NCBI GenBank assembly: GCA_016178585.1
Contig: JACOTA010000018.1
Span: forward strand, 34,442-98,441
DNA: 64,000 nucleotides
DNA from: Nitrospirota bacterium
Lineage (GTDB): Bacteria > Nitrospirota > Nitrospiria > JACQBW01
Direction: 5' to 3'
Below the pieces are notes generated by a model. The model was not told the origin of the DNA, did no database searches, and was given only the letters and a program-made list of their open reading frames with translations. Shown in pieces: positions 44,243 through 63,433 of the stretch (positions within the stretch are counted from its first letter, which is position 1; every line of letters starts with the position of its first letter). The position numbers and the translations under genes were made by a program.

Positions 44243-44280
44243 AGCTTCGCTGCGGAATCGCTCGCGAGCAAGCTTTGTGG
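44243..44280. repeat. Repeat family C (AGCTTCGCTGCGGAATCGCTCGCGAGCAAGCTTTGTG) between the thiC riboswitch terminator and the thiC start
   Basis: Other copies at 61748-61785 (same orientation) and 58398-58437 (inverse). Confidence 0.75.
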
Positions 44281-44303
44281 CACAGGCCCCCGAGTAGAAT
44301 TAG

Positions 44304-46211
<1,908 letters not shown>

Positions 46212-46216
46212 TCTTT

Positions 46217-46567: not shown

Positions 46568-46641
46568 TGATTAGTTCTCCTTAAATGATGTGATTTCCCT
46601 GCAAATGAATACAAACGTAAAAATAATTGTGACATGTTTCT

Positions 46642-46696
46642 TGTAGGGGCAATCCCCCGTGGTTGCCCAGGGCAGGCACAGGGGCCTGCCCCTACG
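46642..46696. repeat. Composite REP doublet (same variant as 36195)
   Basis: TTGTAGGGGCAATCCCCCGTGGTTGCCCAGGGCAGGCACAGGGGCCTGCCCCTACGA. Confidence 0.8.
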
Positions 46697-46727
46697 ATGA
46701 AACGTAACAACATTTAATACGTTTGTA

Positions 46728-47519
46728 TTAATTTCGGTTTAAGTCAAAAATAATGCTCAGGCCTCCAAGAGTCAGGTGAGGGTGGACCTTGTCAATGGCC
46801 CTGGTTTCCGAAGCAATCAATCCGGAAAGTCCTCCCGTGGCAATGACCGTTCCGTTTTCTTTCGTTTCCTTTTTTATTTGCTGGATTAATTTTTCGACCA
46901 ATCCGACATATCCAAAAATAATTCCAGACTGCATGCTGGTGATGGTGTCCGTTCCAATCACCCGATCAGGTTTGACCAGTTCGATCCTGGGAAGTTTGGC
47001 CGCTCGCTGAAACAGCGCTTCCGCCGAGATATTTAACCCGGGAGCAATGGCCCCTCCCCGGTAGACCCCTTTTTTTGAAAGACTGCAAAAGGTGGTGGCC
47101 GTACCAAAGTCGACAATAATCAAAGGCCCCCCGTAAAAATGGAATCCGGCAACAGCGTTGACAATCCGATCAGCGCCGATCTCAGCCGGATTCTCATATT
47201 GGAAGGTCAACCCCAGTTTGATCTGCGTGGTGACAACCTTTGGATCTGTATTGAAATATTTGACGGAAATTTCTTTAAAGATCGGGGTGAGGGGCGGGAC
47301 GACCGAGGAAATGATCGCCCCTCGAATTTCTTCTGGAAGAATTTTTTTTAATGAAAAGAGGTCTTCCATCAAGATGGCGTATTCGTCAACGGTTTTATGG
47401 GGATGGGTGGAAATTCGCCACTCCCCGATTAAATGTTTTTTTTGAAACAGGCCTAAAACAATGTTGGAGTTGCCGATGTCGATGGTGAGGAGCATGCTAA
47501 TTCCTTTAGATCCGGTCAT
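46728..47519 (-). CDS. coaX: Type III pantothenate kinase
   Basis: LLTIDIGNSNIVLGLF; GADRIVN; IIVDFGTATT. Confidence 0.85.
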   Translation of the reverse strand: MTGSKGISMLLTIDIGNSNIVLGLFQKKHLIGEWRISTHPHKTVDEYAILMEDLFSLKKILPEEIRGAIISSVVPPLTPIFKEISVKYFNTDPKVVTTQIKLGLTFQYENPAEIGADRIVNAVAGFHFYGGPLIIVDFGTATTFCSLSKKGVYRGGAIAPGLNISAEALFQRAAKLPRIELVKPDRVIGTDTITSMQSGIIFGYVGLVEKLIQQIKKETKENGTVIATGGLSGLIASETRAIDKVHPHLTLGGLSIIFDLNRN

Positions 47520-48313
47520 GGGGCAATATCGCCCGCCATAATGGTCATTCTGGTGAAATCTTTTTTTTCTAAAATTAAGCCGCCGTGAGGGTCCAGATCA
47601 ATAGCCGTACCTTCTAAAATCTGACCTCCCTGGCTGATCCTGACCTTTTTTCCCAGCGTATCGGAAAGCTTTTTCCATTCTGATGAAATCATTTGATGGC
47701 CTTTTTGATAAAATTGTTCAAGTTCCTTTTCGATTTCCTGAAGAAGGTCAGTCAAAAACAGCTCCCGGCAAACAGGGTGGCCTGTCTCTTTTTTCAAAGA
47801 CGTGGCGGTCTGAGAAATGGGGGAGGGAAATCGGCTCATATTGACATTGACGCCAATCCCCAAAATGAGATATTGAACCTGATTCCCTTCGGCATGAAGT
47901 TCGGTTAAGATTCCGGCAACCTTTTTGTCGTTGATCAGAATGTCATTGGGCCATTTTATTTTAGGCAAAAGCCCTGTGTAACCCTGAATGCTTTTTGCGG
48001 TTGCGACGCCTCCCAGGAGACTCATCCAGCTTGCCGTTTGCGGCGAAATGGGAGGTCTCAGGAGAAGTGAAAAATAAAGGTTGGCAAATGCGGGAGAGAT
48101 CCAGGTTCGGCCAAGCCGTCCTTTTCCAGCGGTCTGTTTGTCTGCAATGACCAGGGTGCCGTTAGGATTCCCCTTTTTACCGAGTTGTGCGGCCTGCAAA
48201 TTGGTCGAGTCGGTCGATTCCAGGTAAATCAGGGTTTTCCCGATTTCCTTCGTCCTCAGGGACTTAATAATCTGATCGATCTGAAGATGTTTTTTTAATT
48301 TTACGTCATCCAT
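47516..48313 (-). CDS. birA: Biotin--[acetyl-CoA-carboxylase] ligase
   Basis: GKGRLGRTWISP; KWPNDILI..KKVAGILTE. Confidence 0.8.
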   Translation of the reverse strand: MDDVKLKKHLQIDQIIKSLRTKEIGKTLIYLESTDSTNLQAAQLGKKGNPNGTLVIADKQTAGKGRLGRTWISPAFANLYFSLLLRPPISPQTASWMSLLGGVATAKSIQGYTGLLPKIKWPNDILINDKKVAGILTELHAEGNQVQYLILGIGVNVNMSRFPSPISQTATSLKKETGHPVCRELFLTDLLQEIEKELEQFYQKGHQMISSEWKKLSDTLGKKVRISQGGQILEGTAIDLDPHGGLILEKKDFTRMTIMAGDIAP

Positions 48314-49151
48314 TGGGAACGATATCCATGCTCAGATCCACCGCCGGAGCCGAATGGGTTAAAGCGCCGATTGAAATGTAGTCGACGCCTGCTTCGGCGA
48401 TGTCTTTAACATTATTGAGATTGACCCCCCCGGAAGCCTCAACCAGAGCCCGGTTTCCGATTAACGATACGGCCTCTTTAATTTTGGACGGGGTCATATT
48501 ATCCAGAAGAATGATGTCGGCGCCCTCTTCTATTGCGATTCTCGCTTCTTCTTTATTTTTAACCTCCACCTCAACCGGAGAATAAGGATTAGCCCCTGAT
48601 TTGAGGGCCCTCAGCGTCTTTTTTAATCCCCCTTTTAACGTAATATGGTTATCTTTAATCAAGATGGCGTCACCGAGGTGAAAACGGTGATTCATGCCTC
48701 CCCCTTGAGACACCGCGTATCGCTCCAGCAATCGGAGGCCGGGGGTGGTTTTTCGCGTATCGAGAATTTTTGCTTTGGTCCCTTTGACCTGTTTTACAAA
48801 TTTTGCGGTTAAAGTTGCGATTCCGGATAATCTTTGCAGAAAATTAAGCGCGACCCGTTCGCCCTTCAACAAAGTTCTTCCGTCTCCCAGAAGGGTGATA
48901 AAGATCTCTCCTTTTTTAACGCTGTTTCCATCCTGGTGGTGTATCGTGATTTGAATGCCGGGGTCTAAAAGAGTAAAGAGTTCCCTTGCAACCAGGGTCC
49001 CGGCCAGGACAACTTCTTCTCTTGGAAAAATCGTCCCTTTCGCCGGGAGAAATTCCGGGAACAAAGTCTGGGTCGTCACATCTCCCCATCCCAGGTCTTC
49101 TTTGAGGGCTTCTTTAAGGAGGTCTTGAATTTGAAGAGGGGATAAAATCAT
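48306..49151 (-). CDS. nadC: Nicotinate-nucleotide pyrophosphorylase (quinolinate phosphoribosyltransferase)
   Basis: Type II PRTase signature; ILDTRKTTPGLR; LLDNM. Confidence 0.85.
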   Translation of the reverse strand: MILSPLQIQDLLKEALKEDLGWGDVTTQTLFPEFLPAKGTIFPREEVVLAGTLVARELFTLLDPGIQITIHHQDGNSVKKGEIFITLLGDGRTLLKGERVALNFLQRLSGIATLTAKFVKQVKGTKAKILDTRKTTPGLRLLERYAVSQGGGMNHRFHLGDAILIKDNHITLKGGLKKTLRALKSGANPYSPVEVEVKNKEEARIAIEEGADIILLDNMTPSKIKEAVSLIGNRALVEASGGVNLNNVKDIAEAGVDYISIGALTHSAPAVDLSMDIVPNG

Positions 49152-49176
49152 TGAATGAGACCCAGGCGGTTCGGAT

Positions 49177-51864
49177 TTAGAAAAAGGATTTCAGTTTATG
49201 AATTTCTTCTGCAAGAAAAGTTTTTTTCTCTTCGAGCGCTTTTTTTCTGATTTCTTCTTCCTTAACCACTTTTTCAGGCGCGTTTTTAGCGAAATTCGGG
49301 TTGTCGAATTTTTTCGCTATTAGCGAAAGATCCAGTTGAATTTTTTCAATTTGTTTTTCCAACCGTTTGATTTCATCTTTCGGGTCAGAAATTCCGGTCA
49401 AATCGACATAAAGGGTTCCCAGATTGCATACGTACGTCGCGCAGTAAGCCGGCTTTTCAAGTTGAGAACTGATGAAAAGATGGGAAAGCCTGGCCAGTCT
49501 CTTGATGTAGGCTTCCTGCTCAGTCAATAGGGAAACCGCCTCCTCTTTTAGAACGAGGTAAGCGTTTAATTCCTTACCCGGAGGGATATTATTCTCTCCC
49601 CGGATGCTCCTTAGCCCTTTGATAATTTCCTTGAGATTTTCCATCAGTTTGTCGATCCCTTTGTCATCAGAAAGGGGCTCGGTTTGAGGATAGGAAAGGG
49701 TTAAAATACTTCTTTTCCCGGGAGAAAGAGAGGGCCAGATGGCTTCAGAAATAAAGGGCATAAAAGGGTGAAGTAAAAGGAGAATTTCTCGAAAGGCGCT
49801 GGCCATGATGTGCCGGGTTGATTCCGCTTCTGAATCAAATAAAATCGGTTTGATAAATTCGAGGTACCAGTCGCAGTATTCATGCCAGATGAAATGATAA
49901 AGGGCGTTTGCGGCTTCATCGAAACGAAATGTCTCAAGGGACTGATTGACTTGGCGAACACACTCGTTTAATTTGATTAAAATCCATTGATCCGGGAGGG
50001 TTTCAGGGGCCGGTTTTGAACCCGGAAGATCTTCTTCATTTTTTAAATTGAGTAAAATAAAGCGGGCGGCGTTCCAGATCTTGTTACAAAAGTTTCGGTA
50101 ACCGGCAAAACGCTCTTCATCGAGCAGGATGTCCCTTCCAGGGGCGGCCATTGAGGCGAGGGTGAACCTCAGGGCATCGGTCCCATACCGGTCCATTAAA
50201 GCGATCGGATCGATCACGTTGCCTTTGGATTTGCTCATTTTTTGCCCTTCCGCGTCCCGGACCAGGGCGTGAAAATAGACCGTTTTAAACGGGACTTCTC
50301 CCCTGAATTTAAGTCCCATCATGATCATTCGGGAAACCCAGAAAAAAATGATATCGAACCCCGTTGATAAGACAGAGGTCGGATAAAATTTTTTCAAATC
50401 CTCCGTCTGGTCTGGCCATCCTAAAGTTGAAAAGGGCCAGAGCGCGGATGAAAACCAGGTATCCAGCACATCAGGGTCCTGGATAAACGCCTTGCCCCGG
50501 CATTTTTTACAGGATTCCGGTTTTGCCGCGCTGACCACAGGATCAAGGGTTTTAAAAAGAAACGGGTTCCCCTTCTTTAATTCAGGATGGCACGCCAGGC
50601 AGTACCAGGCCGGAATTTGATGTCCCCACCAGAGCTGTCGGGAAATACACCAATCTTTAATGTTCTCCATCCAGGCAAAATAGGTGTTCTCCCAAAATTC
50701 GGGAATAAATTTAATGTCTCCCTTTCGAACGGCCTCAATGGCTGGGAGGGCGAGAGGCGAGATCCGGACAAACCATTGGCTGGAAAGATAAGGTTCTACA
50801 ACGGTGTGGCAACGCTGGCACTTTCCCACCGCGTGAAGATGTTTTTTGATGTCGATTAAATATCCATCCTCTTTTAATTTCTCAACCACTTTTTGTCGTG
50901 CCGTTGGGAAATCCATTCCGGCAAATTCACCGGTTCGCGCGTTCGAAATAATTTTTCCGGCGGGGGTAAGGATGTTTTCAAGAGGGAGGTGATGCTTAAC
51001 ACCCATTTCATAGTCGTTAAAATCATGGCCAGGCGTGACCTTTACGGCCCCGGATCCAAATTCCCGGTCAACGGCGGAGTCCGAGATGACAGGAATAGGG
51101 ATGTTGGCCAGGGGGAGGAGAACTTTTTTCCCGATAAAGGTTTGATAACGCGGGTCCTCCGGATGAACGGCCACGGCGGTGTCTCCCAGCAAGGTTTCTG
51201 GCCGGGTGGTTGCGACGGGAAGGCCCTGTGCCGGATCATCTGCTAACGGGTAATGAATGTAATAAAGGGCCCCCTCAGCCTCTTCATGAATCACTTCGAT
51301 ATCTGAAAGCGCCGTCTGGCACCGGATGCACCAATTAATAAGCCGCTCACTTCTGTAGATTAACCCTTCCTGAAACAGCCGGATAAATACCTCTTCGACC
51401 GACCGGGAAAGCCCTTCATCCATCGTAAACCGCTCCCGCGTCCAATCACAGGAACTGCCCAGTCTCTGGAGTTGTTGAATGATCGTTCTGCCGGAGTGTT
51501 CTTTCCATTCCCAGACTTTTCGAATAAACGCTTCCCGTCCGATATCCTCTTTTTTCTTTTTTTCTTTAGCCAATTGTTTTTCGACGATATTTTGGGTGGC
51601 GATCCCCGCATGGTCGGTCCCTGGGACCCATAAAACATTAAAACCCCGCATCCGCTTCCACCGGGCCAGGATATCCTGCAGGGTGTTGTTTAACGCATGC
51701 CCCATATGGAGAACGCCGGTAATGTTGGGGGGAGGGATCACCATGGAAAACGGGGGAGCCGAAGAGCGGACATCGGCATGAAATAAATCTTCGTCGAGCC
51801 ATTTCTGGTATTGCAGAGGTTCGATCTCTTTGAATTCGTAAGTTTTTGAAAGTTCTTTAAACAT
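49177..51864 (-). CDS. valS: Valine--tRNA ligase
   Basis: PPNITGVLHMGHAL; KMSKSKGN; C-terminal coiled coil. Confidence 0.95.
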   Translation of the reverse strand: MFKELSKTYEFKEIEPLQYQKWLDEDLFHADVRSSAPPFSMVIPPPNITGVLHMGHALNNTLQDILARWKRMRGFNVLWVPGTDHAGIATQNIVEKQLAKEKKKKEDIGREAFIRKVWEWKEHSGRTIIQQLQRLGSSCDWTRERFTMDEGLSRSVEEVFIRLFQEGLIYRSERLINWCIRCQTALSDIEVIHEEAEGALYYIHYPLADDPAQGLPVATTRPETLLGDTAVAVHPEDPRYQTFIGKKVLLPLANIPIPVISDSAVDREFGSGAVKVTPGHDFNDYEMGVKHHLPLENILTPAGKIISNARTGEFAGMDFPTARQKVVEKLKEDGYLIDIKKHLHAVGKCQRCHTVVEPYLSSQWFVRISPLALPAIEAVRKGDIKFIPEFWENTYFAWMENIKDWCISRQLWWGHQIPAWYCLACHPELKKGNPFLFKTLDPVVSAAKPESCKKCRGKAFIQDPDVLDTWFSSALWPFSTLGWPDQTEDLKKFYPTSVLSTGFDIIFFWVSRMIMMGLKFRGEVPFKTVYFHALVRDAEGQKMSKSKGNVIDPIALMDRYGTDALRFTLASMAAPGRDILLDEERFAGYRNFCNKIWNAARFILLNLKNEEDLPGSKPAPETLPDQWILIKLNECVRQVNQSLETFRFDEAANALYHFIWHEYCDWYLEFIKPILFDSEAESTRHIMASAFREILLLLHPFMPFISEAIWPSLSPGKRSILTLSYPQTEPLSDDKGIDKLMENLKEIIKGLRSIRGENNIPPGKELNAYLVLKEEAVSLLTEQEAYIKRLARLSHLFISSQLEKPAYCATYVCNLGTLYVDLTGISDPKDEIKRLEKQIEKIQLDLSLIAKKFDNPNFAKNAPEKVVKEEEIRKKALEEKKTFLAEEIHKLKSFF

Positions 51865-51938
51865 AAGAGAAAAATAGTAACAAAAACTCAGTCTGCCTGT
51901 AAAGAACGGAATTAAGCCCTAAAACATATATGGAAAGG

Positions 51939-52103
51939 TGTCATTGCGAGCCCTTCACCTGTCATTCTGAGGCGAAGCCGAAGAATCTCAGGTTTGTTCA
52001 GGACAGGCTCCGCGAAGCAATCTTGCCATCTTGAACCGAGATCGCCACGCACCCTACGGGTGCTCGCGATGACGGGCAAAACAAGGAGTTGCTGTTCACG
52101 GGT
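51939..52103. mobile_element. MITE locus (two overlapping family-A variants, including the GCCACGCACCCTACGGGTGCTCGCGATGAC type)
   Basis: TGTCATTGCGAGCCC...GTCATTCTGAGGCGAAGCCGAAGAATCT...CGAGATCGCCACGCACCCTACGGGTGCTCGCGATGACGGGCAAAACAAGG. Confidence 0.8.
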
Positions 52104-53866
52104 TAAGCCAAAAAAGGTAAAGGAGGGGAAATATGGCTGATTTTAGACTGGTTTTTGTACCACCTGAGCCATTTTTTTTCTTCCCGGGATAAAAGGGAGT
52201 GATCGATTAACCTTTCGTCGAGGGGAGAAAAGGTGAGCGGAGTCACCGTAAGCCAGTCGGGGTATTTTGGGTGATCAATGACGGTACAAAGGTTTTCTAT
52301 TCTGACGCCTCCAAACTCGGATAAATAAATTCCCGGTTCAATTGAAAAAACATGACCTTTTTCGAGGATAGAGTCGCCCTGGGAGCTGATTCTCGGCGGA
52401 GATTCATGGACATTGATTCCTACGCCATGTCCCGTTCCGTGATTGTAATTGTAACCCGCTTTCCATAAAGGAGCCCTGACAATGGCATCTAAAGCGGCAC
52501 CCGAGGTTCCTTTAGGAAAACCCGCGTCCATTCCGGCAATGGCTCCTTTTAAGACCGTGGTGAATATTTTTTTCTGTTCTTCCGTTCCCTTTGTTTTGGA
52601 ATCTCCGACCAAAAAAGTTCTGGTCAAATCGGTCGCGTATCCCCCTTCATAATAGGCTCCGGTATCAAGAAGCATGAGCTCTCCGTTGGAGATCATACGA
52701 TCCGGATCCGGATTGGAGTAGTGAATCACGGCCCCGTTTTTTCCGGCCGCGCTGATAATATGAAAAGAAAGAGAGAAGGCGCCGGATTGTTTAAAAAGTT
52801 TGGCGACTTTTTCAGCAAACCGGGTTTCGCTTATTTTCTCACCTGAAGAAGTTTTCCTGCAAAGCCAATGTTTTGCTTTATTGACCACCTGATCGGCCTT
52901 GGCGAAGGCCTTGATCATATGGGTCAATTCTTCAGGAGTTTTGTTGGCCTTCATCGTGGCAATGGGTGACGGAAGGGGAATCGTTTTAAAGGAGTGGGAA
53001 ACCAGGATCATCCGGATGGCTTCAGTGGTGGTAGAGGGATCGTACCCGACGGTGCGGTTTTTTTCACTGTTTTTAAGAATATTTTTCCAATCGTCGATGT
53101 CAATAAGGGTTAATTCTTTTAGTTCCGGATTTTCAGCCCGTTCAGGTTCAGGAAGGGCGACGTAACAACGATCGGAAGTCACCAGAACCAGGCTTTTAAA
53201 AGTTGCCTGGTAAGGTATTTCATTTCCCCGAAGGTTTGTCATATAGGCAATTTCATCGAGTGTTTGAACAAACCAGAGATCGATGCCGTTGAATGACATA
53301 AACTCCCGGAGCCGGGCAAGTTTTTGGGCCGCCGGGAATCCGGTTAAAGAAGGGGAAATTTTCCAAATCTTGCCGGTTTTTTCTTTGATGGGACCCCGTA
53401 CCTCTTCCACCAGAGACGGGGTCAACGGAACGGTTTCAATTTTTAATTTCTCAGCGCTCTTTTTGAGTCGATCAAAAGTTTCAATGCTGAAGCGATCCGG
53501 TTCGAATCCAATGCGGGCGGGTGTAGCCGGAAAAAGATCTTTAATTTTCTGGATAAGAGCCTTTTCAAGGGAGGTTCCTAACGGAACTTTTTCGATTTTA
53601 AAAATTTTTGGGTCCACCTGGTGTTCTGCCTGGAGATGATAACGCCCATCCACGAATAAGAAAGCGTCCCGCAAGGTGATGAAAAGGTCTCCCGCGCTTC
53701 CGGAAAATCCGGAAACCCAGACTCTTGTGCTTTCGCTCTCAGGAACATATTCATTCAGGAACCTGTCGGTGCCCCGAACAATCAAACCTGACAGGTTTTT
53801 TTCAGTCATTTTGTTTCGCACGAGGCGGACTCTGAGAGAATAGTCTGGTTTTTGATCTGTTTCCAA
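52103..53866 (-). CDS. pepP: Xaa-Pro aminopeptidase (M24B, aminopeptidase P family)
   Basis: M24 metal ligands ...DTGAYYEGGYATDLTRTF...HGTGHGVGINVHE...E..; N-terminal creatinase-like domain. Confidence 0.8.
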   Translation of the reverse strand: METDQKPDYSLRVRLVRNKMTEKNLSGLIVRGTDRFLNEYVPESESTRVWVSGFSGSAGDLFITLRDAFLFVDGRYHLQAEHQVDPKIFKIEKVPLGTSLEKALIQKIKDLFPATPARIGFEPDRFSIETFDRLKKSAEKLKIETVPLTPSLVEEVRGPIKEKTGKIWKISPSLTGFPAAQKLARLREFMSFNGIDLWFVQTLDEIAYMTNLRGNEIPYQATFKSLVLVTSDRCYVALPEPERAENPELKELTLIDIDDWKNILKNSEKNRTVGYDPSTTTEAIRMILVSHSFKTIPLPSPIATMKANKTPEELTHMIKAFAKADQVVNKAKHWLCRKTSSGEKISETRFAEKVAKLFKQSGAFSLSFHIISAAGKNGAVIHYSNPDPDRMISNGELMLLDTGAYYEGGYATDLTRTFLVGDSKTKGTEEQKKIFTTVLKGAIAGMDAGFPKGTSGAALDAIVRAPLWKAGYNYNHGTGHGVGINVHESPPRISSQGDSILEKGHVFSIEPGIYLSEFGGVRIENLCTVIDHPKYPDWLTVTPLTFSPLDERLIDHSLLSREEKKWLRWYKNQSKISHISPPLPFLA

Positions 53867-53960
53867 GAATACCCCTGTCTGGTATTTTTCGGTGATGGGT
53901 TTGAATCTATAGAATTTAAAGTTTAGAGTTTTAAGCCATAAAAATCAACTCACTTAAAAC

Positions 53961-54093
53961 GCCCAAGAGATAGAATGTGTCTTTGCGAGCCGAAGGCGAA
54001 GCAATCTCGTCTTTTAAACCCGAGATCGCCACGCACCCTACGGGTGCTCGCGATGACAGGAAAAAAATTATAAACTCTATCTCTGTCCTTGGC
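53961..54093. mobile_element. Complete MITE (variant CCCAAGAGATAG TIR; GCCACGCACCCTACGGGTGCTCGCGATGACAGG core)
   Basis: TIRs CCCAAGAGATAGA ... CTATCTCTGTCCTTGG. Confidence 0.8.
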
Positions 54094-54106
54094 AAACGAA
54101 TAACTT

Positions 54107-54251
54107 TACCCAAGAACAGCGATAGAAAGTTGTCATTGCGAGCGAAGCGAAGCAATCTCAAGATTTTACGATAAGATTGCCACGCACCCTTCGGTGCTCG
54201 CAATGACATGATTAATAAGTGGGTGCGAAGTCTATCGCTGTTCTTGGGCTT
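54107..54251. mobile_element. Complete MITE with TIRs (CCCAAGAACAGCGATAG ... CTATCGCTGTTCTTGGG)
   Basis: About 97% identical to 19145-19284. Confidence 0.85.
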
Positions 54252-54277
54252 TAAATGGAGATCGTTAAGGCGGGAAT

Positions 54278-55321
54278 TTACTCAAGTTCTTCCGTGATTT
54301 TTTTGATGGCTTCTTTAACCGACTTTTCCGCAATGAAAGGGACGACCTCCCAGATCACTTTTTCGACCATCGCGGCAATGGCTTCCTTTTTTAAGGCCTG
54401 TTCCGTTAGATGCGGGACCACTTCCCAGGCGACTTTTTCGATAATCTCCTGGGTTATTTTCGTCATGTCCGCCTCTTTTCCCCCGGAAGGGATGGAAATC
54501 GGGGAGACTTCTTCAAAATTTTTAACGGGTTCCTCGATAAAGGCAGACGTCTCAAAATTTGTTGTCGTTGCTTCGAAGTCGGTTGTTATCCCCGAGGTTT
54601 CCTGCAAAGTGTCCAATTGGGTATCGGCAGAAAATGGATTCACGGTGGTATCGGAAGGAGCGGATTCTTCCATAAGTTTGGTCAAACCTGTCCCTTCGGT
54701 TTCTTCGGGAGCAGGAGAGGAAATGACCTCGGAAAACGGAGAAACCTCATCAGCCGACCATCCCAAAAGATCCTCGATATTGACTGTTTCTTCTACAGAA
54801 GCCCGTTCGGTTTTTGCTTTACCAGAGTCCATAACCGTCTTTTCAAATACGGTTTGATCGAGATTAAAGGCTTCCTCAGGTTTTTCGATCATTTCGGATC
54901 TGACGGGACTCTCCAGGGGGGGAGATAAAACGGTGTCAGAAAAATTATCTGAAAATCTCGCGAGATAGGGTTTTAAGGATTCTTTGAGTTCTTTTTCATC
55001 GAAAGGCTTTTTAAGGAAGCCGACAACGCCGGATTGCCGAAGTTTTGCTTCGTCGTAACCGTCGTTTTGCTGGACTAACAAGAATATTGGAATATGAGAC
55101 AGGAAAGTCTTCTGCCTGATTCTGGCGCAAAAGCTGTATATCATCAACCCTTCCATTCGCATATCCGCGATAATCAAATCAGGTTTTATTTTATAGGCGA
55201 GATCCAGCCCGGAAAGCGCGTCTCTGACACAGGTCACTTCAAAATTTTGGGCGATGAGTGTATTTTCAATCGTTGTTTGGATGATAGGGTTTTGATCGAC
55301 GACCAAAATTTGAGCTGGCAT
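54278..55321 (-). CDS. Single-domain response regulator (REC) with long acidic linker and duplicated C-terminal amphipathic motif
   Basis: REC: ILVVDQNPII...DLIIADMRMEG...FLLV...KLRQSGVVGFLKKPF; C-terminal EKVAWEVVPHLTEQALKKEAIAAMVEKVIWEVVPFIAEKSVKEAIKKITEE; start trimmed to ATG 55321. Confidence 0.7.
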   Translation of the reverse strand: MPAQILVVDQNPIIQTTIENTLIAQNFEVTCVRDALSGLDLAYKIKPDLIIADMRMEGLMIYSFCARIRQKTFLSHIPIFLLVQQNDGYDEAKLRQSGVVGFLKKPFDEKELKESLKPYLARFSDNFSDTVLSPPLESPVRSEMIEKPEEAFNLDQTVFEKTVMDSGKAKTERASVEETVNIEDLLGWSADEVSPFSEVISSPAPEETEGTGLTKLMEESAPSDTTVNPFSADTQLDTLQETSGITTDFEATTTNFETSAFIEEPVKNFEEVSPISIPSGGKEADMTKITQEIIEKVAWEVVPHLTEQALKKEAIAAMVEKVIWEVVPFIAEKSVKEAIKKITEELE

Positions 55322-55478
55322 AACGAAAATTCTCCAATACAATACAAAAAAGCTACCACACAAAACACCCTTTGTCAATGCAGGTTTTCTGCATTTGAAG
55401 CGCAAAAAAAACCGGGAATTGAGTCATTCAATTCCCGGAATATCGCTGTCTGTATTTTTCTGGAGGTAAATAAAAACC

Positions 55479-58196
55479 TTATGGCAAAGCAAAAATACCC
55501 GCGGTGGCTAATGTATTATTGCTTTCATTGGTCTCCGCAATTACATTTCCTGAGTCAGCAACTCCAACGATATAATAATTTCCTGCGGGAACTCCCGCAG
55601 GGATGGTAAAGATCGTTGTGGCACTGTTCGTCGCCGAAGCTCCGGCCAGAACCGGGATGGTTCTGCTTCCCAGGAGAATTTTACTTGGACCGGGCGCCGG
55701 GGTTGTGGATAAATAAAACGAAGCTGTGAATGCTCCTGCCGCGATGTTTCCGATATTCTGTTCTGTGTCGCTTATATAGAATGAATTTCCAGAACGAATC
55801 GCAGATATTTGAAATCCGGTTAAATCTGGCCCAATGGTGTAAGTTGTCGTTGTGCAAAGGATATTGTTCGCTTCGTTTGTTTCGATCACGGTGTTTGCTG
55901 AATCACTAACTGCGCAGACATAATAAACCCCGACGGGTGTATTGGAGGGAATTGGGAATACGGTTGTCGCCGAGTTTGTCGCACTTCCGCCAGCCAGATT
56001 GGTTACATTACGTGTGCCTGTTGAATATCCGGATGCAGGGGAAGAGATCGTTTGAGTAAAGTAATAAGTCACTACAAACGTCCCGGACCCTTTATTTCCC
56101 AAATTCTGTTGAGTGTCGCTGATGTAGATGCTGGTTCCTGAAAGTGAGCCAGAAATCTGATAGGTAATCAGATCCGGTCCGATTGTGTAAGTGGTTGACG
56201 TGCAAAGATTATTATTAGTTTCATGGGTCTCCGTTAAGGCACCGCCTGAATCGGTCATTGCGCAGACATGGTAGGTTCCGGCCGGCGCGGTGATGGGGAT
56301 GGCGAAGATCGTTGTTGCGGAATTGGTCGCGCTTCCGCCTGCAAGACCGGACAGACTGCGGCTGCCTATCAAGGTATCAGTTGACGGGTTGGGCGTTGTT
56401 CCCGCCGTAAAGTAAAAAGAGACGGTGAAGGGGCCCGCCGATTCGTTTCCAATGTTTTGCTGGGTATCGCTGAGATAAATGTTCGTTCCTGAAATAGTTC
56501 CTGAGATCTGGTAATTAATCAGATCGGGACCAACCAAATAGGTTCCTGTTGTTACACCCGTATTGTTAGTTTCGTCGGTTTCGATAATTTTGTGTTGATA
56601 ATCAGCCAACGTTCCAACGTAATAATTTCCTGTTGGAATGTTGCTTAAAGTGATCACCGTTGTCGCAGAACTTGATCCATTGACCGCCAGATTAGAAGCA
56701 ATCCTTTTTCCAATGAGAATATCATTGCCTGATCCTGTAATAATCGCATCGGGAGAAAGGTACAAGCCCACATCCACTGATGGGAGGTTCACCTGGCCCG
56801 AATTAAATATCGTATCACTGACAAACATGCTGCTTCCGCTTAAAGTGGCAGACAGGAAATAAGCCTTGACATCGGCGTTGATCGGGCCGACCGTGCAATT
56901 CGCTGTTCCACTAATTGTCCCTGAGGAGGCCGTAATGGCGATCGGTCCGCCTACAGATATGCCCGTTGCAAGTCCAGTCGAATCGACGGCGCAAATGGCC
57001 GGATCACTCGACGTCCAGGTAAAGGTTACTCCGGTCATCAAGGACCCCAATTGGTCGATTCCGGTTGCCGTGTACTGCCGGGGCGGCCCCGTAATGGTGG
57101 CGCTGGCCGGACTCACCGTTATCGAGGTCAACACAGGACTCGCGATATAGAGTGTGGTGTTTGTAAAGGTGCCATCGCCATTTCCCAAAAGGATCTTGGG
57201 AGTCGGATTACCTCCCGGTGTCGAAGGCGCAATCGTGACAATCAAATCCGTTCTTCCGTCACCATTCACATCCCTTGCGGTTACGGAGGTCAGCGTTTCG
57301 GAGCCTCCGCCTGTTTTGGGTACGATGAACTGTTTCGCCGCTAATCCGTTACCCCCGGTTGTTGTGGCGAAACTTCCTGCCCTGTTTCCGTAGTAAACGG
57401 ACAAATAAGTTGACCCATTCGCCGCTTTATCAAGCACAACGATATCATCAAAGGCATCTGTATTGTTGTTAAAGTTTCCTGCCGCCACTCCTTGCGGGGC
57501 GTCAGGATCACTCATTGAAAATGCGGGAACGGGTGGGGCGCCTCCGACGAAACTTCCTCCGGCAGTCATGGGGTAAAGTTGAATTTTCTTTATAGCAGCT
57601 GAAGCGATGACAAGATCGGGCACAGCGTCGGCATCAAAAAGACCGGTGGTTTCAAAATCACCTCCGCCCGTTCCACCGCCTGCAGGGGTTGTGCCAACTC
57701 CCCCTCCGCTGGTAGCGTTGATGGTAATATGCCCGATCATGCCACTTGTTGAACCTGGATTAGCATGAAGCTGGCAGTAAAATTTACAGGGATTCCCTGC
57801 CGGAGTGGCGGCAGTGAAAGCGGGGCTGGTAAAAGTACCTGAAGATACAAAACCGGAATCAAAGTTTGCTCCACTTGAACATGGGCTGGCAGAAGAAATC
57901 CCATCCGTTGTGGTGACTGTGTGAGTAGTTCCCCCGTCATTCCATGTCCAGGCAATCGTGTCTCCTTGATTAATCGTGAGGTTATTTGTTCCGATATCAG
58001 AGGCATTTAGACTGCTCTGGGTAAAATATTGGGCACCTGGACCGATATTTACGTTCCAGTTTGCTCCCTTCACAGGGGGAGGAAGAATTCCAAAAACGAT
58101 GAGCAAAATTCCCAAACAGACCGTCCATTTCGTCACGGAGTTATTAGATTGGGAAATTAATCCGGTTAAACATCTTTTTTCTTTTTTCATTTTCAT
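55479..58196 (-). CDS. Large secreted protein (905 aa): N-terminal cupredoxin-like domain, FG-GAP repeats, Big_2-like domain, four tandem CARDB-like domains
   Basis: Signal/TM LGILLIVFGILPPPVKGA; putative T1Cu ligands H(TTHTV)...C-x2-H-x8-M (CQLHANPGSTSGM); DVNGDGRTDLIV; four repeats of 'GPDL..YQISG..SG.S.Y.SDTQQN.GN...G.F......'. Confidence 0.7.
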   Translation of the reverse strand: MKMKKEKRCLTGLISQSNNSVTKWTVCLGILLIVFGILPPPVKGANWNVNIGPGAQYFTQSSLNASDIGTNNLTINQGDTIAWTWNDGGTTHTVTTTDGISSASPCSSGANFDSGFVSSGTFTSPAFTAATPAGNPCKFYCQLHANPGSTSGMIGHITINATSGGGVGTTPAGGGTGGGDFETTGLFDADAVPDLVIASAAIKKIQLYPMTAGGSFVGGAPPVPAFSMSDPDAPQGVAAGNFNNNTDAFDDIVVLDKAANGSTYLSVYYGNRAGSFATTTGGNGLAAKQFIVPKTGGGSETLTSVTARDVNGDGRTDLIVTIAPSTPGGNPTPKILLGNGDGTFTNTTLYIASPVLTSITVSPASATITGPPRQYTATGIDQLGSLMTGVTFTWTSSDPAICAVDSTGLATGISVGGPIAITASSGTISGTANCTVGPINADVKAYFLSATLSGSSMFVSDTIFNSGQVNLPSVDVGLYLSPDAIITGSGNDILIGKRIASNLAVNGSSSATTVITLSNIPTGNYYVGTLADYQHKIIETDETNNTGVTTGTYLVGPDLINYQISGTISGTNIYLSDTQQNIGNESAGPFTVSFYFTAGTTPNPSTDTLIGSRSLSGLAGGSATNSATTIFAIPITAPAGTYHVCAMTDSGGALTETHETNNNLCTSTTYTIGPDLITYQISGSLSGTSIYISDTQQNLGNKGSGTFVVTYYFTQTISSPASGYSTGTRNVTNLAGGSATNSATTVFPIPSNTPVGVYYVCAVSDSANTVIETNEANNILCTTTTYTIGPDLTGFQISAIRSGNSFYISDTEQNIGNIAAGAFTASFYLSTTPAPGPSKILLGSRTIPVLAGASATNSATTIFTIPAGVPAGNYYIVGVADSGNVIAETNESNNTLATAGIFALP

Positions 58197-58320
58197 CTAC
58201 CCCCCTGGTGAGTGTTTCCCTGAGTAATCGTTCCGGGTGTCACGTTTAAACCTTCAATAGAGTGTATTTATTCCATACTTTTCCTTTAAACCTAAAAACG
58301 GCAGTTGAATATTATATTTG

Positions 58321-58390
58321 ATGGTCTCGTTAAAAAGGCGTCATTCCCGCTAAACTTGTCCCCGTATGCTTTTAGCGGGGAGCGGGAATC
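58321..58390. repeat. Repeat family D copy (ATGGTCTCGTTAAAAAGGCGTCATTCCCGC...GCGGGGAGCGGGAATC)
   Basis: Matches 15244-15285. Confidence 0.7.
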
Positions 58391-58397
58391 CAAAGGG

Positions 58398-58437
58398 AAT
58401 CACAAAGCTTGCTCGCGAGCGGGTCCGTAGCGAGACG
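58398..58437 (-). repeat. Repeat family C copy (inverse)
   Basis: CACAAAGCTTGCTCGCGAGCGGGTCCGTAGCGAGACG. Confidence 0.7.
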
Positions 58438-58789
58438 AATCATTTATCCCGTTTACATAAAGTTTACATGTGAATGACAGAAATGTATTTTTTCAGACTG
58501 CTTACGACTGCATTAAAGGTGACAACGATTAAAAATAATGACTTTTTACAATAAAAAAATGGAATGACTCATTCTTCTAAACGGTTTAATCATATGATTG
58601 GCAGTGAATTAAGGTTGAGGATCATCAAATTTTTTAATAAGCTATATTAAAATATGTGTGTTTATTCGTTTTCTGAAAAGGGAAAACCATGGTATACTTT
58701 AAAAAAAGTATGAAAAACCAACGGGCGCTTCTTTTACAAAAACTTTAAAGGTTTGTGAAACGCTAACTCTCCTGGAGCATTTTTAAAAA

Positions 58790-59620
58790 ATGTATGATTG
58801 CAGTACGATCCTTAATATTATGCATCCTTATCTGGATGGTGAACTACCTACAAAAGAAGCGATATTGATTCAGGAGCATCTCGACACCTGTTCCAGCTGC
58901 CGGATTAAATTTCAAAAAGAAAAAGAGCTGTTAACGTTCTATAAAAGCAATTTACCCAGGGAACAGGCGCCTCATGATCTGAAAGTACGTCTAAATGAAT
59001 TGATAAAAGATAAAAGCCCTGTCTCAACAGTTCAAAAAAAGTGGTTTAAGATTTTTTATCCGGCAACGATAGGCGTTACGGTCGTTTTGCTGGGTTTAAT
59101 TTTGTTTAATCTCAAGCCTTCTGAGGTCAAATTGTCTCACCTGGTTGAAGAAGCGCTGGAATATCATGTTTCGTATCAAAATAAACCCTTTAAGCTTCAA
59201 TTTGAGAACTCAAATCCAGAAAAATTGAGGCAACTGATTAAAAGCAGAGGGGGATTTGACATTCATCTCTCTGATCCGGAAGTTTCAAAGTTAAATTTGA
59301 TTGGAGCCAATCTTCAGATGATTGAGGGGATTCCTACCGTATTGATTTTTTATAAGGATTCTGAGGGAAAAATGATAACCCTGATGGTGTCTGACTACGA
59401 CTCTTTTGTTCCATTCAAAGGGAACCCGGAGGAAATTCAGAGTCTTAAATTTTACAATTTAAACTTTCAGGGAAATCATATTACCACCTGGCAGAATAAA
59501 CCCCGGAGTTATGTCTTGATTTCAGAATCAAGAAAAGATGTCGGAAACGGATGCCATATTTGTCATGGCGGAAATAAGGAGATGGAACCTAAGATACAAT
59601 CATTTATTGATCGTATTTAA
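58790..59620 (+). CDS. Putative zinc-finger (ZAS-type) anti-sigma factor-like membrane protein, orphan (no adjacent sigma factor)
   Basis: N-terminal H-x3-C-x2-C (HLDTCSSCR); TM IFYPATIGVTVVLLGLILF; about 170-aa periplasmic domain. Confidence 0.5.
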   Translation: MYDCSTILNIMHPYLDGELPTKEAILIQEHLDTCSSCRIKFQKEKELLTFYKSNLPREQAPHDLKVRLNELIKDKSPVSTVQKKWFKIFYPATIGVTVVLLGLILFNLKPSEVKLSHLVEEALEYHVSYQNKPFKLQFENSNPEKLRQLIKSRGGFDIHLSDPEVSKLNLIGANLQMIEGIPTVLIFYKDSEGKMITLMVSDYDSFVPFKGNPEEIQSLKFYNLNFQGNHITTWQNKPRSYVLISESRKDVGNGCHICHGGNKEMEPKIQSFIDRI

Positions 59621-59653
59621 CGCATTGATATTCCAACGATAAAGAATTTAGAG

Positions 59654-59692
59654 TAAAAAAACGCGGTTTTTGTTAAAACCGCGTTTTTTTTT
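59654..59692. terminator. Bidirectional rho-independent terminator (A8-CGCGGTTTT-TGTT-AAAACCGCG-T10)
   Basis: Perfect 9-bp stem flanked by A- and T-runs. Confidence 0.8.
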
Positions 59693-59753
59693 GGAATAAT
59701 TTCACTCATTTCATGGTTTAGATTAGGAGGTTCTCTATTTTTTCATGATATGA

Positions 59754-60797
59754 ATGAAACAGTTATTTTTGATCGGTTTTTTCTTCATCTTGTTTGGGTG
59801 GTTGTATCCCTCTGCCTCCCCTTCCCCCTCTTTTGCCCAAACCATCCCAACTCAGCCCCCTCAAGATCCGGCGCCTAAGCTCAAACACTCTCGCTGGGGA
59901 GTGGAGGTCTTCTCCGGCTTTTACCGGCCTCGCTTGAAGACTTTGAACACGGTCATTTCTAATCCCCGGCTGGGTATTCTTCAAGACCCTAATTTTCTCC
60001 TCCCCGGCAATGAGCAGTTTCAATCGAATAAAAAAAATATAGTGATGGATGATTTATCCGGCAATGTCGAGTTTGGGGTTGAACTCAACTATGATCTTTC
60101 TCAAAAATCGGCATTATTTCTTTCCACCAGTTTATGGCATGGCCAGACCATTAATGGAGATATTATTCCGATCCCTATTTTTGCCAGACCCACCCCTGCG
60201 CATTTTGTTTCCTGTGTTTCCGTTCCGGTGGAATTTGATTACCGGTGTGCCTCCCGGAGCGCCCGGTATAACCTGGTTTTAGAACAGTTCTGGGCAGGCT
60301 GGCGCTATCTTCTCTATGAGGATTCAAGGCAAAGCCGGATTTATGCCGACCTCGGACTTTTTGGAATCTCCCTGGCTTTTTTAACCATGGACAGCAGTGT
60401 TAGGCTCGTCAGTGACAACCTCAATTTCGCGTCAGTGAGCTCGACGGAGGCGATGGGCTGGGGATATAGCAGCCGGGTGGGGGTTAAGGGAGAATATTTT
60501 TTATCCAAAAATTTTTCTTTCGGGGGTGGAATCCGTTATATTGTGGGAGATATTAAAAATTTAGCCGTTACCCGCTATTTTCCAGCTGGATTTCAGGAGT
60601 TTCTTTCTCCACAGGCCGGAGTTCCTAATGCCAACACGGCCCAATTTCCTCCTCCGCCTCCCAAAATCGGTGACGATATTATTTTCGGACAGGTCACCAC
60701 CACCTCCACGAATAATGATGTGACATCAAATATTGAAAAACTGGCCATTGAGGTCGATGGTTTTAGTCTGGATCTGTTTTTTAAAATCTACTTTTAG
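59754..60797 (+). CDS. Probable outer-membrane beta-barrel protein (347 aa)
   Basis: Signal peptide; Pro-rich linker; alternating amphipathic beta pattern; C-terminal ...FFKIYF. Confidence 0.5.
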   Translation: MKQLFLIGFFFILFGWLYPSASPSPSFAQTIPTQPPQDPAPKLKHSRWGVEVFSGFYRPRLKTLNTVISNPRLGILQDPNFLLPGNEQFQSNKKNIVMDDLSGNVEFGVELNYDLSQKSALFLSTSLWHGQTINGDIIPIPIFARPTPAHFVSCVSVPVEFDYRCASRSARYNLVLEQFWAGWRYLLYEDSRQSRIYADLGLFGISLAFLTMDSSVRLVSDNLNFASVSSTEAMGWGYSSRVGVKGEYFLSKNFSFGGGIRYIVGDIKNLAVTRYFPAGFQEFLSPQAGVPNANTAQFPPPPPKIGDDIIFGQVTTTSTNNDVTSNIEKLAIEVDGFSLDLFFKIYF

Positions 60798-60995
60798 GAA
60801 ATGAGGATCAGGTTTTGCCTGTCCGAGCTTGGGGTATGGGGGCATCTGGAGGCTCCGAGCTAGCTTTGGGAGCGATTCCCCAGCGTACATAAGGTTTTAA
60901 TCATTTCTCCGCACGGGTCCCCATTAAAATTAGGGAATAAATATCATCTTCCGGAGGTTTAATATGAAAGTCCTATAAAAGGGATGTAAACAAAG

Positions 60996-61676
60996 ATGAA
61001 TTCATTTAAATATTTAATAGTATTAACTTTTTCTATCGTGTTGGCTCTTTTTTCTCCCCATTGGGTGAAAGCGGGTGAAACTTTAACCTTTCATAACACC
61101 AATTTTAAAACAACCAACGATGCCGGTTTCAGGGGATTTTCACTTCCCGAAACCCCCGGGCCAATTCCCTTTCCAAACACTTCCATTCCCTGCTGTCTCC
61201 AAAATAGCACCCAATTCGGTTTTGGCGCTCCCGGTGGAAGCAGTTCAAGAGTCATTAACCAAAATTGTGATCAACTCCTGTTTGAGGCCACCAACCGGTG
61301 TGTTCCGTCGGTCTCCAGTCAAGTTTCTCAGGACGGTGTGGTTCTTCAATCGACTGCGCATGGACTGTTATCGCGGCTGCAGCTGGATGCGCCCGGTTGT
61401 AACGGCTTGGGAACGGGGTTCCGGTGCAATCAAATCGAAACTCAGTTGACCCAGACCGTTCCGGAAAACAGCCAGTCTTTTTCGTTAAAGTTTAGCGTGA
61501 TCTCATTAACCGATCCTAATGGAAATTTAACGGGGAGCGCAAAGGGAACTTTTGAACAAACGATTAATGATCCGCAAGCCACTGGCGGATTAACAAGATC
61601 CTGCCAGGGAGCCTTTACGTATGATTCTGTTAACGGATATGCGTTGACGGCGGGGCCATCAGCCGGCTGTCCCTAA
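60996..61676 (+). CDS. Secreted Cys-rich protein (226 aa), unknown function
   Basis: Signal peptide LTFSIVLALFSPHWVKA; 12 Cys. Confidence 0.5.
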   Translation: MNSFKYLIVLTFSIVLALFSPHWVKAGETLTFHNTNFKTTNDAGFRGFSLPETPGPIPFPNTSIPCCLQNSTQFGFGAPGGSSSRVINQNCDQLLFEATNRCVPSVSSQVSQDGVVLQSTAHGLLSRLQLDAPGCNGLGTGFRCNQIETQLTQTVPENSQSFSLKFSVISLTDPNGNLTGSAKGTFEQTINDPQATGGLTRSCQGAFTYDSVNGYALTAGPSAGCP

Positions 61677-61747
61677 CAGGCTGTTGAAAAAGCCTCATTT
61701 GCTTTGTTCTCGTCGCTCGGCAATCCTCACTAAAGAGGATAAAAGCA

Positions 61748-61785
61748 TAGCTTCGCTGCGGGACCGCTCGCGAGCAAGCTTTGTG
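61748..61785. repeat. Repeat family C copy
   Basis: AGCTTCGCTGCGGGACCGCTCGCGAGCAAGCTTTGTG. Confidence 0.75.
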
Positions 61786-61895
61786 TCTCCATGCGGCCTC
61801 GCGACCTACCTCCAAAAATTAAAATGGAGGAAGTCCCCGAAGGGGGCAACTAAAGCTTTTTGAACAGCCTTAATTAGCATGATCCGTTATTAAAG

Positions 61896-61928
61896 GTTTC
61901 AAAAAAAGGGAGACACCTTTTTTTGAAA
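61896..61928. terminator. Perfect 13-bp hairpin TTTCAAAAAAAGG-GAGACA-CCTTTTTTTGAAA (bidirectional terminator-like)
   Basis: Seen directly. Confidence 0.6.
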
Positions 61929-61960
61929 AATAAAAAGAGGAAGGGGGTGAAAAAATAAAA

Positions 61961-63433
61961 ATGAATAAAACGAAACAATCATTAATAACAGCAGCAGTAA
62001 CAACAATAAAGAAAGGAAAAAAAACTATGAAAATCACAAAAATGAGCCTTTTCACGCTCATCTGCGTGGTTTGTCTCACTTCAGGGCTAGCCTTTGCTGT
62101 TGACGTTAATAATGTCAACAACACGGCAAGCGCGGGGCTTCAGGGAGATACTTTTGTTCCCGGGCTTCTGAATCCTGCAAATGGTCGTTGCAATGGGACT
62201 GATTGCGCCGGTCAGGCAAATCTCGCGTTGAATGGGTGGAGAACGGGAGGATATTTCGAGCCCAGAAATGGGACCGAATTCATGCCGCCAACGGGCGACC
62301 ATCATCGCACGGGATACAGGATGATGTCGACCCTGTCGTTTGGCGCGGGACTCTGGCTAACCGGGTTTGCTCCCCTGCTTCAAGAGGGGCAGTTTACTCC
62401 CGATCTGGGGACGCCGGGTGCGTCGGAAAACGCGATTTCCATGGCGGTTTTTCTCGATCATCCCACGGCCCCCATTACGGCGGGTAAATTTCCACGGTAT
62501 ATTCCTCACGAAAGACAACGGACACCCGATGTCCTAGTGGCGAGAAATATAGCCTCCGGAACGTTGACCCAGGACTTCACCTCACAGGCCACCTTCGGTC
62601 GGGCCACAACATCGTGGACGTCCTTCACGGACCAAAACGCTGCCGACTGCGCTGGCGGACTCTGTAGCTGGACCTGGACGCCAGGTGGAAACCTGACGAT
62701 GACAGACAGTGCCGGAACACACGTCATTGGTCCCGCCACATTGGCCAATGCGCCGTTTCTCGTCGACGATCGGCTTTCTCAACAAGAGCTTTCCAGCAAC
62801 CAAAGTTTGAAAATAAACTTTACGGGTGGAAGCGGACCGAATGTTGAGGAAGAGACCTACGCGGATCCAGGCGAGTTTATTCAGTGTACGGCTACGTCTC
62901 CTTGCGGATCGAGCAATGCGCTTGATACCTATGGGAATGTCGTCATTGATCCAGCGACAGGCCTGCCCAGAAGGGTTCCGACCTATGCTCTGAATCGGAA
63001 CCTCGCCGGTCCTTCCGGAATTGCAGGTGCCTCGGATTCCCCCGCTCTAAACCCGGCAACCCGGGCTGGAGCAGATGGAGTCCTCGGGCATATCGTCAGA
63101 GGAAGTGATCCTTGCGTAGCGGCTGGAACCTGTAAGCCGGGGGATATCGTTCCCGGGGCGGACGACGTCGGCATTATCACCTGCACCGACGCGGCGCCCT
63201 GTAACGGAGGTCAATTCAAGACCCTCAGAGAGACCAACAATCCGCAGAACGAGACATTTTTGCGCATTCCGATTCTTCATAGTTTCGGAAACGCGAAGGT
63301 GATCAACCAGCTTGTTCAGCAGAATGAAGGAGGTTATCTCTATTCGTGCCTGGGTTGTGGTGTTCCTCCAGCGACACCGCATCCGCTTCCTCCGCTTTAT
63401 TATTCGGGTGGGTTAACAACACCCCTTCAATAA
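61961..63433 (+). CDS. Secreted Cys-containing protein (490 aa), unknown function
   Basis: RBS GGAAGGGGGTGAAAAAATAAAAATG nearly identical to that of the 14801 gene; signal peptide MKITKMSLFTLICVVCLTSGLAFA (alternative start 62027). Confidence 0.6.
   Translation: MNKTKQSLITAAVTTIKKGKKTMKITKMSLFTLICVVCLTSGLAFAVDVNNVNNTASAGLQGDTFVPGLLNPANGRCNGTDCAGQANLALNGWRTGGYFEPRNGTEFMPPTGDHHRTGYRMMSTLSFGAGLWLTGFAPLLQEGQFTPDLGTPGASENAISMAVFLDHPTAPITAGKFPRYIPHERQRTPDVLVARNIASGTLTQDFTSQATFGRATTSWTSFTDQNAADCAGGLCSWTWTPGGNLTMTDSAGTHVIGPATLANAPFLVDDRLSQQELSSNQSLKINFTGGSGPNVEEETYADPGEFIQCTATSPCGSSNALDTYGNVVIDPATGLPRRVPTYALNRNLAGPSGIAGASDSPALNPATRAGADGVLGHIVRGSDPCVAAGTCKPGDIVPGADDVGIITCTDAAPCNGGQFKTLRETNNPQNETFLRIPILHSFGNAKVINQLVQQNEGGYLYSCLGCGVPPATPHPLPPLYYSGGLTTPLQ

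Follow-up and report, generated by a model that had tools for sequence, protein, structure and literature searches.

A plastocyanin-like copper domain heads a large, putatively exported FG-GAP, Big_2 and CARDB protein in an uncultured Nitrospirota lineage

Introduction

Blue copper proteins are best known as small, soluble electron carriers, and in the single-domain members of the PF00127 family (plastocyanin, amicyanin, pseudoazurin and halocyanin) the His and Met ligands of the C-terminal loop are separated by four residues. Cupredoxins that are tethered rather than free have also been described, the closest analogues of the protein considered here being Neisseria Laz, the auracyanins of Chloroflexus, and the phytocyanins and early-nodulin-like arabinogalactan proteins (ENODL) of plants, which are tethered by lipid or glycosylphosphatidylinositol (GPI) anchors through linkers that are glycosylated or of low complexity. 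A second analogue is found in the copper nitrite reductases HdNIR of Hyphomicrobium and NirK of Thermus, where an extra cupredoxin is fused to the catalytic type-1/type-2 copper core, so that both share one chain. Here we analyze a gene for a 905-residue protein with an N-terminal cupredoxin domain, located in a 64,000-nucleotide stretch of DNA from a Nitrospirota bacterium (assembly GCA_016178585.1, contig JACOTA010000018.1, positions 34,442 to 98,441 of the forward strand; hereafter the window, with positions counted from its first letter).

This protein departs from each of the described arrangements. Its copper domain has eight residues rather than four between His and Met and an extra conserved Cys pair (Cys106/Cys137), and, in contrast to the free carriers of ~100 residues, it forms only the N-terminal 13% of the chain. 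The tether is a series of folded modules (FG-GAP, Big_2 and CARDB) about 750 residues long, with no recognisable anchor, and the chain lacks the catalytic copper core of HdNIR and NirK. Outside its own subfamily, the nearest sequence relatives of the domain are giant poly-cupredoxin proteins, which share the His-Cys-His-Met ligand set and long His-Met loops and, like the window protein, join copper domains to Ig-like surface modules; they differ in combining many serial copper domains with PKD domains, where the window protein combines one copper domain with FG-GAP and CARDB. In the literature we found no paper naming cupredoxin together with FG-GAP, no description of a cupredoxin-CARDB fusion, and no tandem or poly-cupredoxin proteins besides multicopper oxidases and nitrite reductases. 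The window architecture is a rare, undescribed combination of known parts inside a broad, uncharacterised class. A first-pass annotation, made from the letters of this DNA, had called a copper domain on an adhesin-like scaffold unusual; this holds for the exact architecture and not for the general plan, since metagenomes hold many large, secreted multidomain proteins with tethered cupredoxins.

Results

The N-terminal domain belongs to the plastocyanin/azurin family

The gene (55479..58196, minus strand, as are all of its parts given below) is one complete open reading frame (ORF) of 905 codons plus stop, with a purine-rich GGGGGG before its ATG. An exact-sequence look-up showed the product to be identical to NCBI MBI1820749.1, which is named 'VCBS repeat-containing protein [Nitrospirota bacterium]' and derives from a 114-kb contig of a metagenome-assembled genome (MAG). 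This sequence and MBI3351787.1 were both obtained from groundwater communities. The protein comprises, in order, a predicted Sec signal peptide, a cupredoxin domain of ~115 residues (residues 45-161; 57714..58064), a linker rich in Gly, three FG-GAP/VCBS repeats, a single Big_2 domain and a run of four CARDB domains, which is the succession of copper domain, FG-GAP, Ig-like and four CARDB modules that the first-pass annotation had proposed. Its word 'giant' overstates the size, as 905 residues make a large protein rather than a giant one; a signal peptide can be read from the sequence.

Several independent comparisons identified the N-terminal domain as a cupredoxin, as the annotation had supposed. 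When the whole protein was scored, PF00127 (Copper-bind) matched residues 70-160 over profile positions 16-99 of 99 with 17.4 bits, below the cut-off of 21.2, and the copper domain was missed in database annotation because of this low score in the full-length context. The isolated N-terminal domain scored 22.2 bits and passed the same gathering score, so that the expected Pfam match was obtained for the domain alone. The plastocyanin equivalog TIGR02656 gave 22.1 bits, far from its cut-off of 87.85, and the domain is therefore related to plastocyanin and not its orthologue. When residues 44-170 were compared with all PDB sequences using phmmer, cyanobacterial plastocyanins ranked at the top (1fa4, E 2.7e-4; 2gim, E about 3e-4), and the alignment placed His, Cys, His and Met all in register with plastocyanin, with a four-residue insertion between His and Met. 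A word-index search for homologues of the cupredoxin domain by itself returned no match. The AlphaFold2 (AF2) model of the isolated domain has eight strands, a mean predicted local distance difference test score (pLDDT) of 74.6 and the Greek-key beta-sandwich of the PF00127 cupredoxin fold, and all 27 of its Foldseek matches in the PDB at E <= 0.001 were blue-copper proteins or cupredoxin domains of copper enzymes.

The plastocyanin/azurin-like ligand pattern described in the first-pass annotation is present in full. His92, the N-terminal ligand, lies in GGTTHTV (codon 57921..57923) and aligns with the corresponding His of Anabaena plastocyanin; the C-terminal ligand loop, Cys141-Gln-Leu-His144 with Met153 nine residues past His144 (Cys141-x2-His144-x8-Met153; CQLHANPGSTSGM), is encoded at 57738..57776. 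These four residues are invariant among five aligned full-length members whose domains are 37-50% identical, as are the subfamily-specific Cys106 and Cys137. Only 24 of the 120 columns of the domain alignment are invariant, and the probability that a random placement of these would cover all four ligand positions is about 0.0013; judged on this alignment, the ligand pattern exceeds chance. A rusticyanin-like trait, the Thr after the first His ligand with its resemblance to Ser86, was considered and dropped, since Thr or Ser occupies that position in 452 of 484 related domains. We conclude that membership of the plastocyanin/azurin family, with a complete and conserved set of type-1 ligands, is well supported, and we consider it very likely that this is a real type-1 copper domain that would carry the metal.

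Searches with the family profile found one cupredoxin copy in the protein and no other in the whole 64-kb window. Because the protein has this single cupredoxin, no HxH motif and only six His (along with eight Met), it is not a multicopper oxidase or a copper nitrite reductase. Given that it has no catalytic domain either, a role as carrier fits better than one as oxidase.

The cupredoxin and FG-GAP head is conserved and the stalk is variable

A search with the full-length protein yielded four real homologues (42-56% identity). The subfamily that carries the extra Cys pair comprises P0001-P0005, P0123, P0125, P0129 and P0267, or about ten 50%-identity representatives in a library standing for roughly 15 billion proteins, and all of its named sources are Nitrospirota or Nitrospiria MAGs. 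One member is called 'plastocyanin' by JGI, and two pass the PF00127 cut-off (P0129 with 27.5 bits and P0125 with 21.8 bits). The sole departure from the ligand set seen among complete subfamily domains is in P0125, where an axial Gln replaces Met, an exchange known from stellacyanins.

Both the cupredoxin and the FG-GAP region are present in every relative (P0002-5, P0125, P0129). The remainder of the protein varies: CARDB domains number three, four or six, P0129 has a different repeat array in their place, and in two homologues a Flg_new_2 domain is inserted in the region of the linker, which in the window protein is a Gly-rich, flexible segment (residues 162-179; 57660..57713). We read this pattern as a functional head that is kept constant and a spacer whose length can be adjusted. 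Further members were not found in contigs: a scan of species-representative genomes, a set that does not include the source genome, returned CARDB or Big_2 relatives and none with a cupredoxin, and two metagenome-contig scans gave no further family locus, their single match (L040) having no copper domain. P0282, a protein of the P0123 cluster that adjoins Sortilin/BNR and MopE-like genes on a 63-kb contig, also proved to have no cupredoxin, and its context was discarded.

Within the head of the window protein, the FG-GAP region (residues about 180-350; 57147..57659) was recognized by FG-GAP_3 (PF13517) in three stretches with 42.4 bits against a cut-off of 26.9, and FG-GAP itself (PF01839) fell slightly short (21.5 bits against 22.1). 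The region contains a calcium-loop-like DVNGDGRTD. Its three recognisable repeats span about 170 residues, for which AF2 confidence is low, and by this count they appear too few for a closed seven-bladed propeller of the integrin-alpha type. The putative Big_2 Ig-like domain (residues 355-436; 56889..57134) scored just under the cut-off of PF02368 (20.3 bits against 22.8); the full-length AF2 model has a confident beta-sandwich at about these residues, and phmmer over the segment retrieved many Big_2 proteins at 40-57% identity. The stalk ends in four tandem CARDB domains (residues 437-555, 556-672, 673-788 and 789-905; 55482..56888), which matched PF07705 in four stretches with 131.9 bits against 22.7. 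These units are 116-119 residues long, close to the length of about 115 first proposed, and each is closed by the motif E-x-[ND]-E-x-N-N. Units 2-4 are 48-59% identical to one another and 35-38% identical to unit 1, and the DNA has a period of 348 nt that matches the repeat. In the full-length AF2 model residues 1-350 are poor, whereas Big_2 and the four CARDB domains (residues 440-905) are confident, with pLDDT of about 80-90.

The protein appears to be exported and to keep one free Cys

Residues 1-44 (58065..58196) resemble a Sec-type signal peptide with the hydrophobic core WTVCLGILLIVFGIL, and sequence and homologue alignment together predict cleavage at PPPVKG|A, where the homologues have L-x-A|A. 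The signal peptide has neither a twin-arginine motif nor a lipobox. We are highly confident that the protein is exported; cleavage at the predicted site would leave a mature chain of about 861 residues. The mature protein would contain nine Cys, of which eight form four candidate intradomain pairs (106/137, 402/434, 645/665 and 761/781) and the ninth, the sole unpaired one, is the copper ligand Cys141. P0003, the only homologue without one Cys of the 402/434 pair, has lost both. A disulfide between Cys106 and Cys137 is the natural interpretation, and the other pairs may be joined likewise; the overall pattern fits an oxidising extracytoplasmic site at which a free thiolate is kept for copper. 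The chain ends in ...GIFALP, and its last Pro is conserved among the homologues.

Related domains occur in giant poly-cupredoxin proteins

To place the domain among its wider relatives, we used a profile of the family domain in an exhaustive search of 1.84 billion representatives, which returned 2216 proteins at E <= 0.001. The strongest of these are clear PF00127 proteins (P0127, 1.5e-110; P0121, 5.6e-108; P0124, 2.2e-59), and among the best 147 of the 2216 representatives the median number of cupredoxin domains per protein is four and the maximum 12. In the 552 domains collected from these 147 and from the matches of the full-length search, the full His-Cys-His-Met set is found in 350; some cupredoxin copies have lost ligands, with patterns such as H---, HSH- and HPV-. 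The commonest His-Met spacing among related metagenomic domains is x7 (155 of 355), and because such long spacings are usual there, the x8 loop of the window domain is not exceptional.

Several of the relatives, including P0121, P0122, P0124 and P0126, are metagenomic giants in which 7-12 tandem cupredoxins each keep His-Cys-His-Met. P0121 has 3670 residues, 12 copper domains and PKD domains; P0124 has 2238 residues, seven copper domains, PKD domains and a sorting domain for type-IX secretion (T9SS). Their source labels are 'plastocyanin' or 'cupredoxin domain-containing protein', and several are nameless. Such proteins could be copper-based electron conduits.

The gene lies in a variable region and is probably transcribed alone

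A pattern match to the intrinsic-terminator consensus found a hairpin 40 nt past the stop codon (55412..55438, minus strand; an 11-bp stem followed by a T8 run), which suggests that the gene is transcribed alone. Upstream lies an AT-rich intergenic region of 593 bp (58197..58789; GC about 0.385 for 58001-60000) that contains no ORF of 42 codons or more and no credible Rfam match, the Rfam scan around the cupredoxin gene having found no element, and that presumably holds the promoter. A structured element in this region was considered and rejected, as its predicted folding is no more stable than that of shuffled sequence (z = -0.05).

Beyond the intergenic region, and divergent from the cupredoxin gene, is the gene for an orphan zf-HC2 anti-sigma-like protein (58790-59620, plus strand) with one transmembrane segment and a CXXCH motif (GCHICHGG) towards the C-terminal end of the domain predicted to lie outside; from this motif, it might be a haem-binding sensor. 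No gene for a sigma factor of the extracytoplasmic function (ECF) type lies between or beside the cupredoxin and anti-sigma genes. Two Cys-rich proteins of 226 and 490 residues, encoded at 60996-61676 and 61961-63433 (both plus strand), begin with hydrophobic segments and so look secreted; Pfam gave no match for either, and neither has a homologue among the loci that were fetched. The first-pass annotation had suggested that the anti-sigma-like and Cys-rich genes may be functionally linked to the cupredoxin gene. This proposed link is unsupported: the cupredoxin gene has its own predicted terminator, the anti-sigma gene diverges from it at a distance of 593 bp, and tblastn found no homologue of the anti-sigma-like, Cys-rich or outer-membrane-protein-like products of the window in any locus with a family member.

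The surroundings of the other family members differ from those in the window and include an oligopeptide ATP-binding cassette (ABC) transporter, IMPDH, GMP synthase and DUF5916. At two such loci a BNR/Sortilin-Vps10 propeller protein (L001, 5207-9169, minus strand; L033, 4437-5756, plus strand) adjoins the family member. The L001 propeller carries a fused di-haem peroxidase-like DHOR domain and is thus a candidate redox partner; a gene of this kind is absent from the window. A 1321-residue protein of the window (1529-5494, plus strand), which has CarboxypepD_reg and several FG-GAP_3 repeats and no cupredoxin, was considered as the counterpart of the 1320-residue DHOR-Sortilin neighbour of P0003 and found not to be homologous.

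The window was also compared with L036, a locus from the closest relative of the host. The nearest relative of the window's valyl-tRNA synthetase (ValRS) is that of this 'Nitrospiria' MAG, at 85% identity, compared with about 55% for Manganitrophaceae, Nitrospirales and even Geobacter, which places the organism, by this marker, in an uncultured Nitrospirota lineage. Because identity falls so far outside the closest MAG, physiology cannot be borrowed from cultured relatives. From 36751 to 55405 the window has the same gene order as L036, from a tetratricopeptide-repeat (TPR) protein kinase to a response regulator, the latter being 65% identical to its counterpart in L036 and 47% in L037. In L036, KsgA directly adjoins the response regulator, at the site occupied in the window by the cupredoxin gene; the sequence from 55.5 kb onward is therefore a variable region, and the whole block from 55.5 to 63.4 kb was possibly inserted together.

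The rest of the window is of a housekeeping character, with genes for phosphoenolpyruvate (PEP) carboxylase, ThiC, Thi4, NadC, CoaX, ValRS, an M24 peptidase, Ser/Thr kinases and a sigma-54 two-component pair. A P1B-type ATPase (40237-42357, plus strand), whose gene is part of the conserved housekeeping synteny, was examined as a link to copper. It has CPC and a DCxxC metal-binding domain and lacks YN(x4)P and MxxSS, the motifs that mark Cu(I) pumps; its probable identity is that of a Zn/Cd-type exporter with no part in copper supply, and the link was abandoned. An 895-residue protein (22671-25358, plus strand) has a weak Big_13 match and no cupredoxin, and an IS200/Y1-transposase-like gene for 320 residues lies mid-window (21510-22472, minus strand). 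The 12-mer GCTCGCAATGAC, with one mismatch allowed, has 32 sites in the window against 0.5 expected, mostly as inverted pairs about 57-75 nt apart and largely intergenic (for example 1342/1415, 5517/5590, 14489/14553, 33154/33218 and 54132/54196); the pairs look like a REP/MITE-like family of palindromic elements peppering the genome.

Discussion

We propose that the window protein is an exported, tethered one-electron carrier with a conserved head and a variable stalk, a reading to which we assign a probability of about 0.5. The cupredoxin part of the head would bind one type-1 (blue) copper through His92, Cys141, His144 and the axial Met153, and the Cu(II)/Cu(I) site would take up electrons one at a time and hand them on, either at the cell surface or within the periplasm. 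The three FG-GAP repeats of the calcium-binding type, which complete the head, may dock the protein to a partner or a polymer, and the one Big_2 and four CARDB beta-sandwiches would serve as a spacer of adjustable length. The element of this proposal that we hold with a little less than even confidence is the role itself, that of a tethered electron carrier rather than some other copper-dependent function.

Several observations weigh against the proposal. The Pfam evidence is marginal, with a sub-cut-off score of 17.4 bits in the full-length context, and AF2 models the FG-GAP region poorly, with pLDDT values below about 50. The protein has no recognisable membrane anchor, sorting domain or outer-membrane sorting signal, and tethering need not mean exposure, since one study reports that Neisseria Laz is not surface exposed (PMC6277709). 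No redox partner (cytochrome, oxidase or second cupredoxin) is encoded in the window, no conserved operon was found among the few loci that carry family members, and the host is an uncultured lineage with no physiology to draw on.

One alternative is that the protein is a copper-dependent adhesin or matrix protein with no electron relay, in which binding by the FG-GAP and CARDB modules is the real function and the head serves in copper sensing, sequestration, delivery or stability, on the model of CupA or the cupredoxin domain of EfeO. To our knowledge, however, these cupredoxin-fold copper handlers lack the full His/Cys/His/Met type-1 set, which in the window family is complete and invariant. 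The nearest PDB sequence relatives are moreover plastocyanins, which are electron carriers, and no His- or Met-rich segment of the kind that would trap copper is found in a protein with so few of either residue. We consider this alternative unlikely.

It is also conceivable that the protein is a component of a local envelope system, such as an ECF-controlled module for extracellular redox chemistry or metal oxidation, together with the anti-sigma-like protein, a putative outer-membrane beta-barrel and the two Cys-rich proteins encoded at 58790-63433. The comparison with L036 is compatible with this idea, in that the cupredoxin gene and possibly the block that follows it constitute a variable insertion; a CXXCH motif lies in the predicted external part of the anti-sigma-like protein, and all five proteins look exported or membrane-bound from their hydrophobic N-terminal or internal segments. 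Yet the cupredoxin gene, with its own predicted terminator, is transcribed away from the others across the 593-bp gap, no ECF sigma gene is present, and the loci of other family members lack homologues of these proteins and have different neighbours (BNR/Sortilin propellers, IMPDH and DUF5916). On balance such a system is quite improbable. That the ligand pattern is a relic and the domain a metal-free beta-sandwich, adding just another Ig-like unit to a surface protein, might be argued from the marginal Pfam score, the intermediate AF2 confidence (74.6) and the loss of ligands from some cupredoxin copies in relatives. It is very improbable, since none of the four ligands varies among family members whose domains are 37-50% identical, every Cys of the mature chain except Cys141 has a candidate partner, and 350 of the 552 related domains keep all four residues.

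A bolder reading may be stated, although we think it improbable: blue-copper sites on Ig-like stalks, placed beyond the cytoplasmic membrane in the window protein and in the related giants, might be a copper counterpart of surface multihaem cytochromes and exchange electrons with external donors or acceptors (minerals, metals or other cells nearby), while in this Nitrospirota lineage the FG-GAP module would dock the head to its substrate or partner.

Should the carrier reading fail, the correction to the annotation would still be useful, as the NCBI name is only 'VCBS repeat-containing protein'. The domain of ~115 residues would, if the reading is right, be a tractable object for tests. What sets this family apart is that, in uncultured Nitrospirota, it sets one ligand-intact blue-copper domain on the tip of an extended scaffold of modules; if these proteins carry electrons outside the cell or within its envelope, haem wires would no longer be the limit of extracellular or long-range electron transfer.

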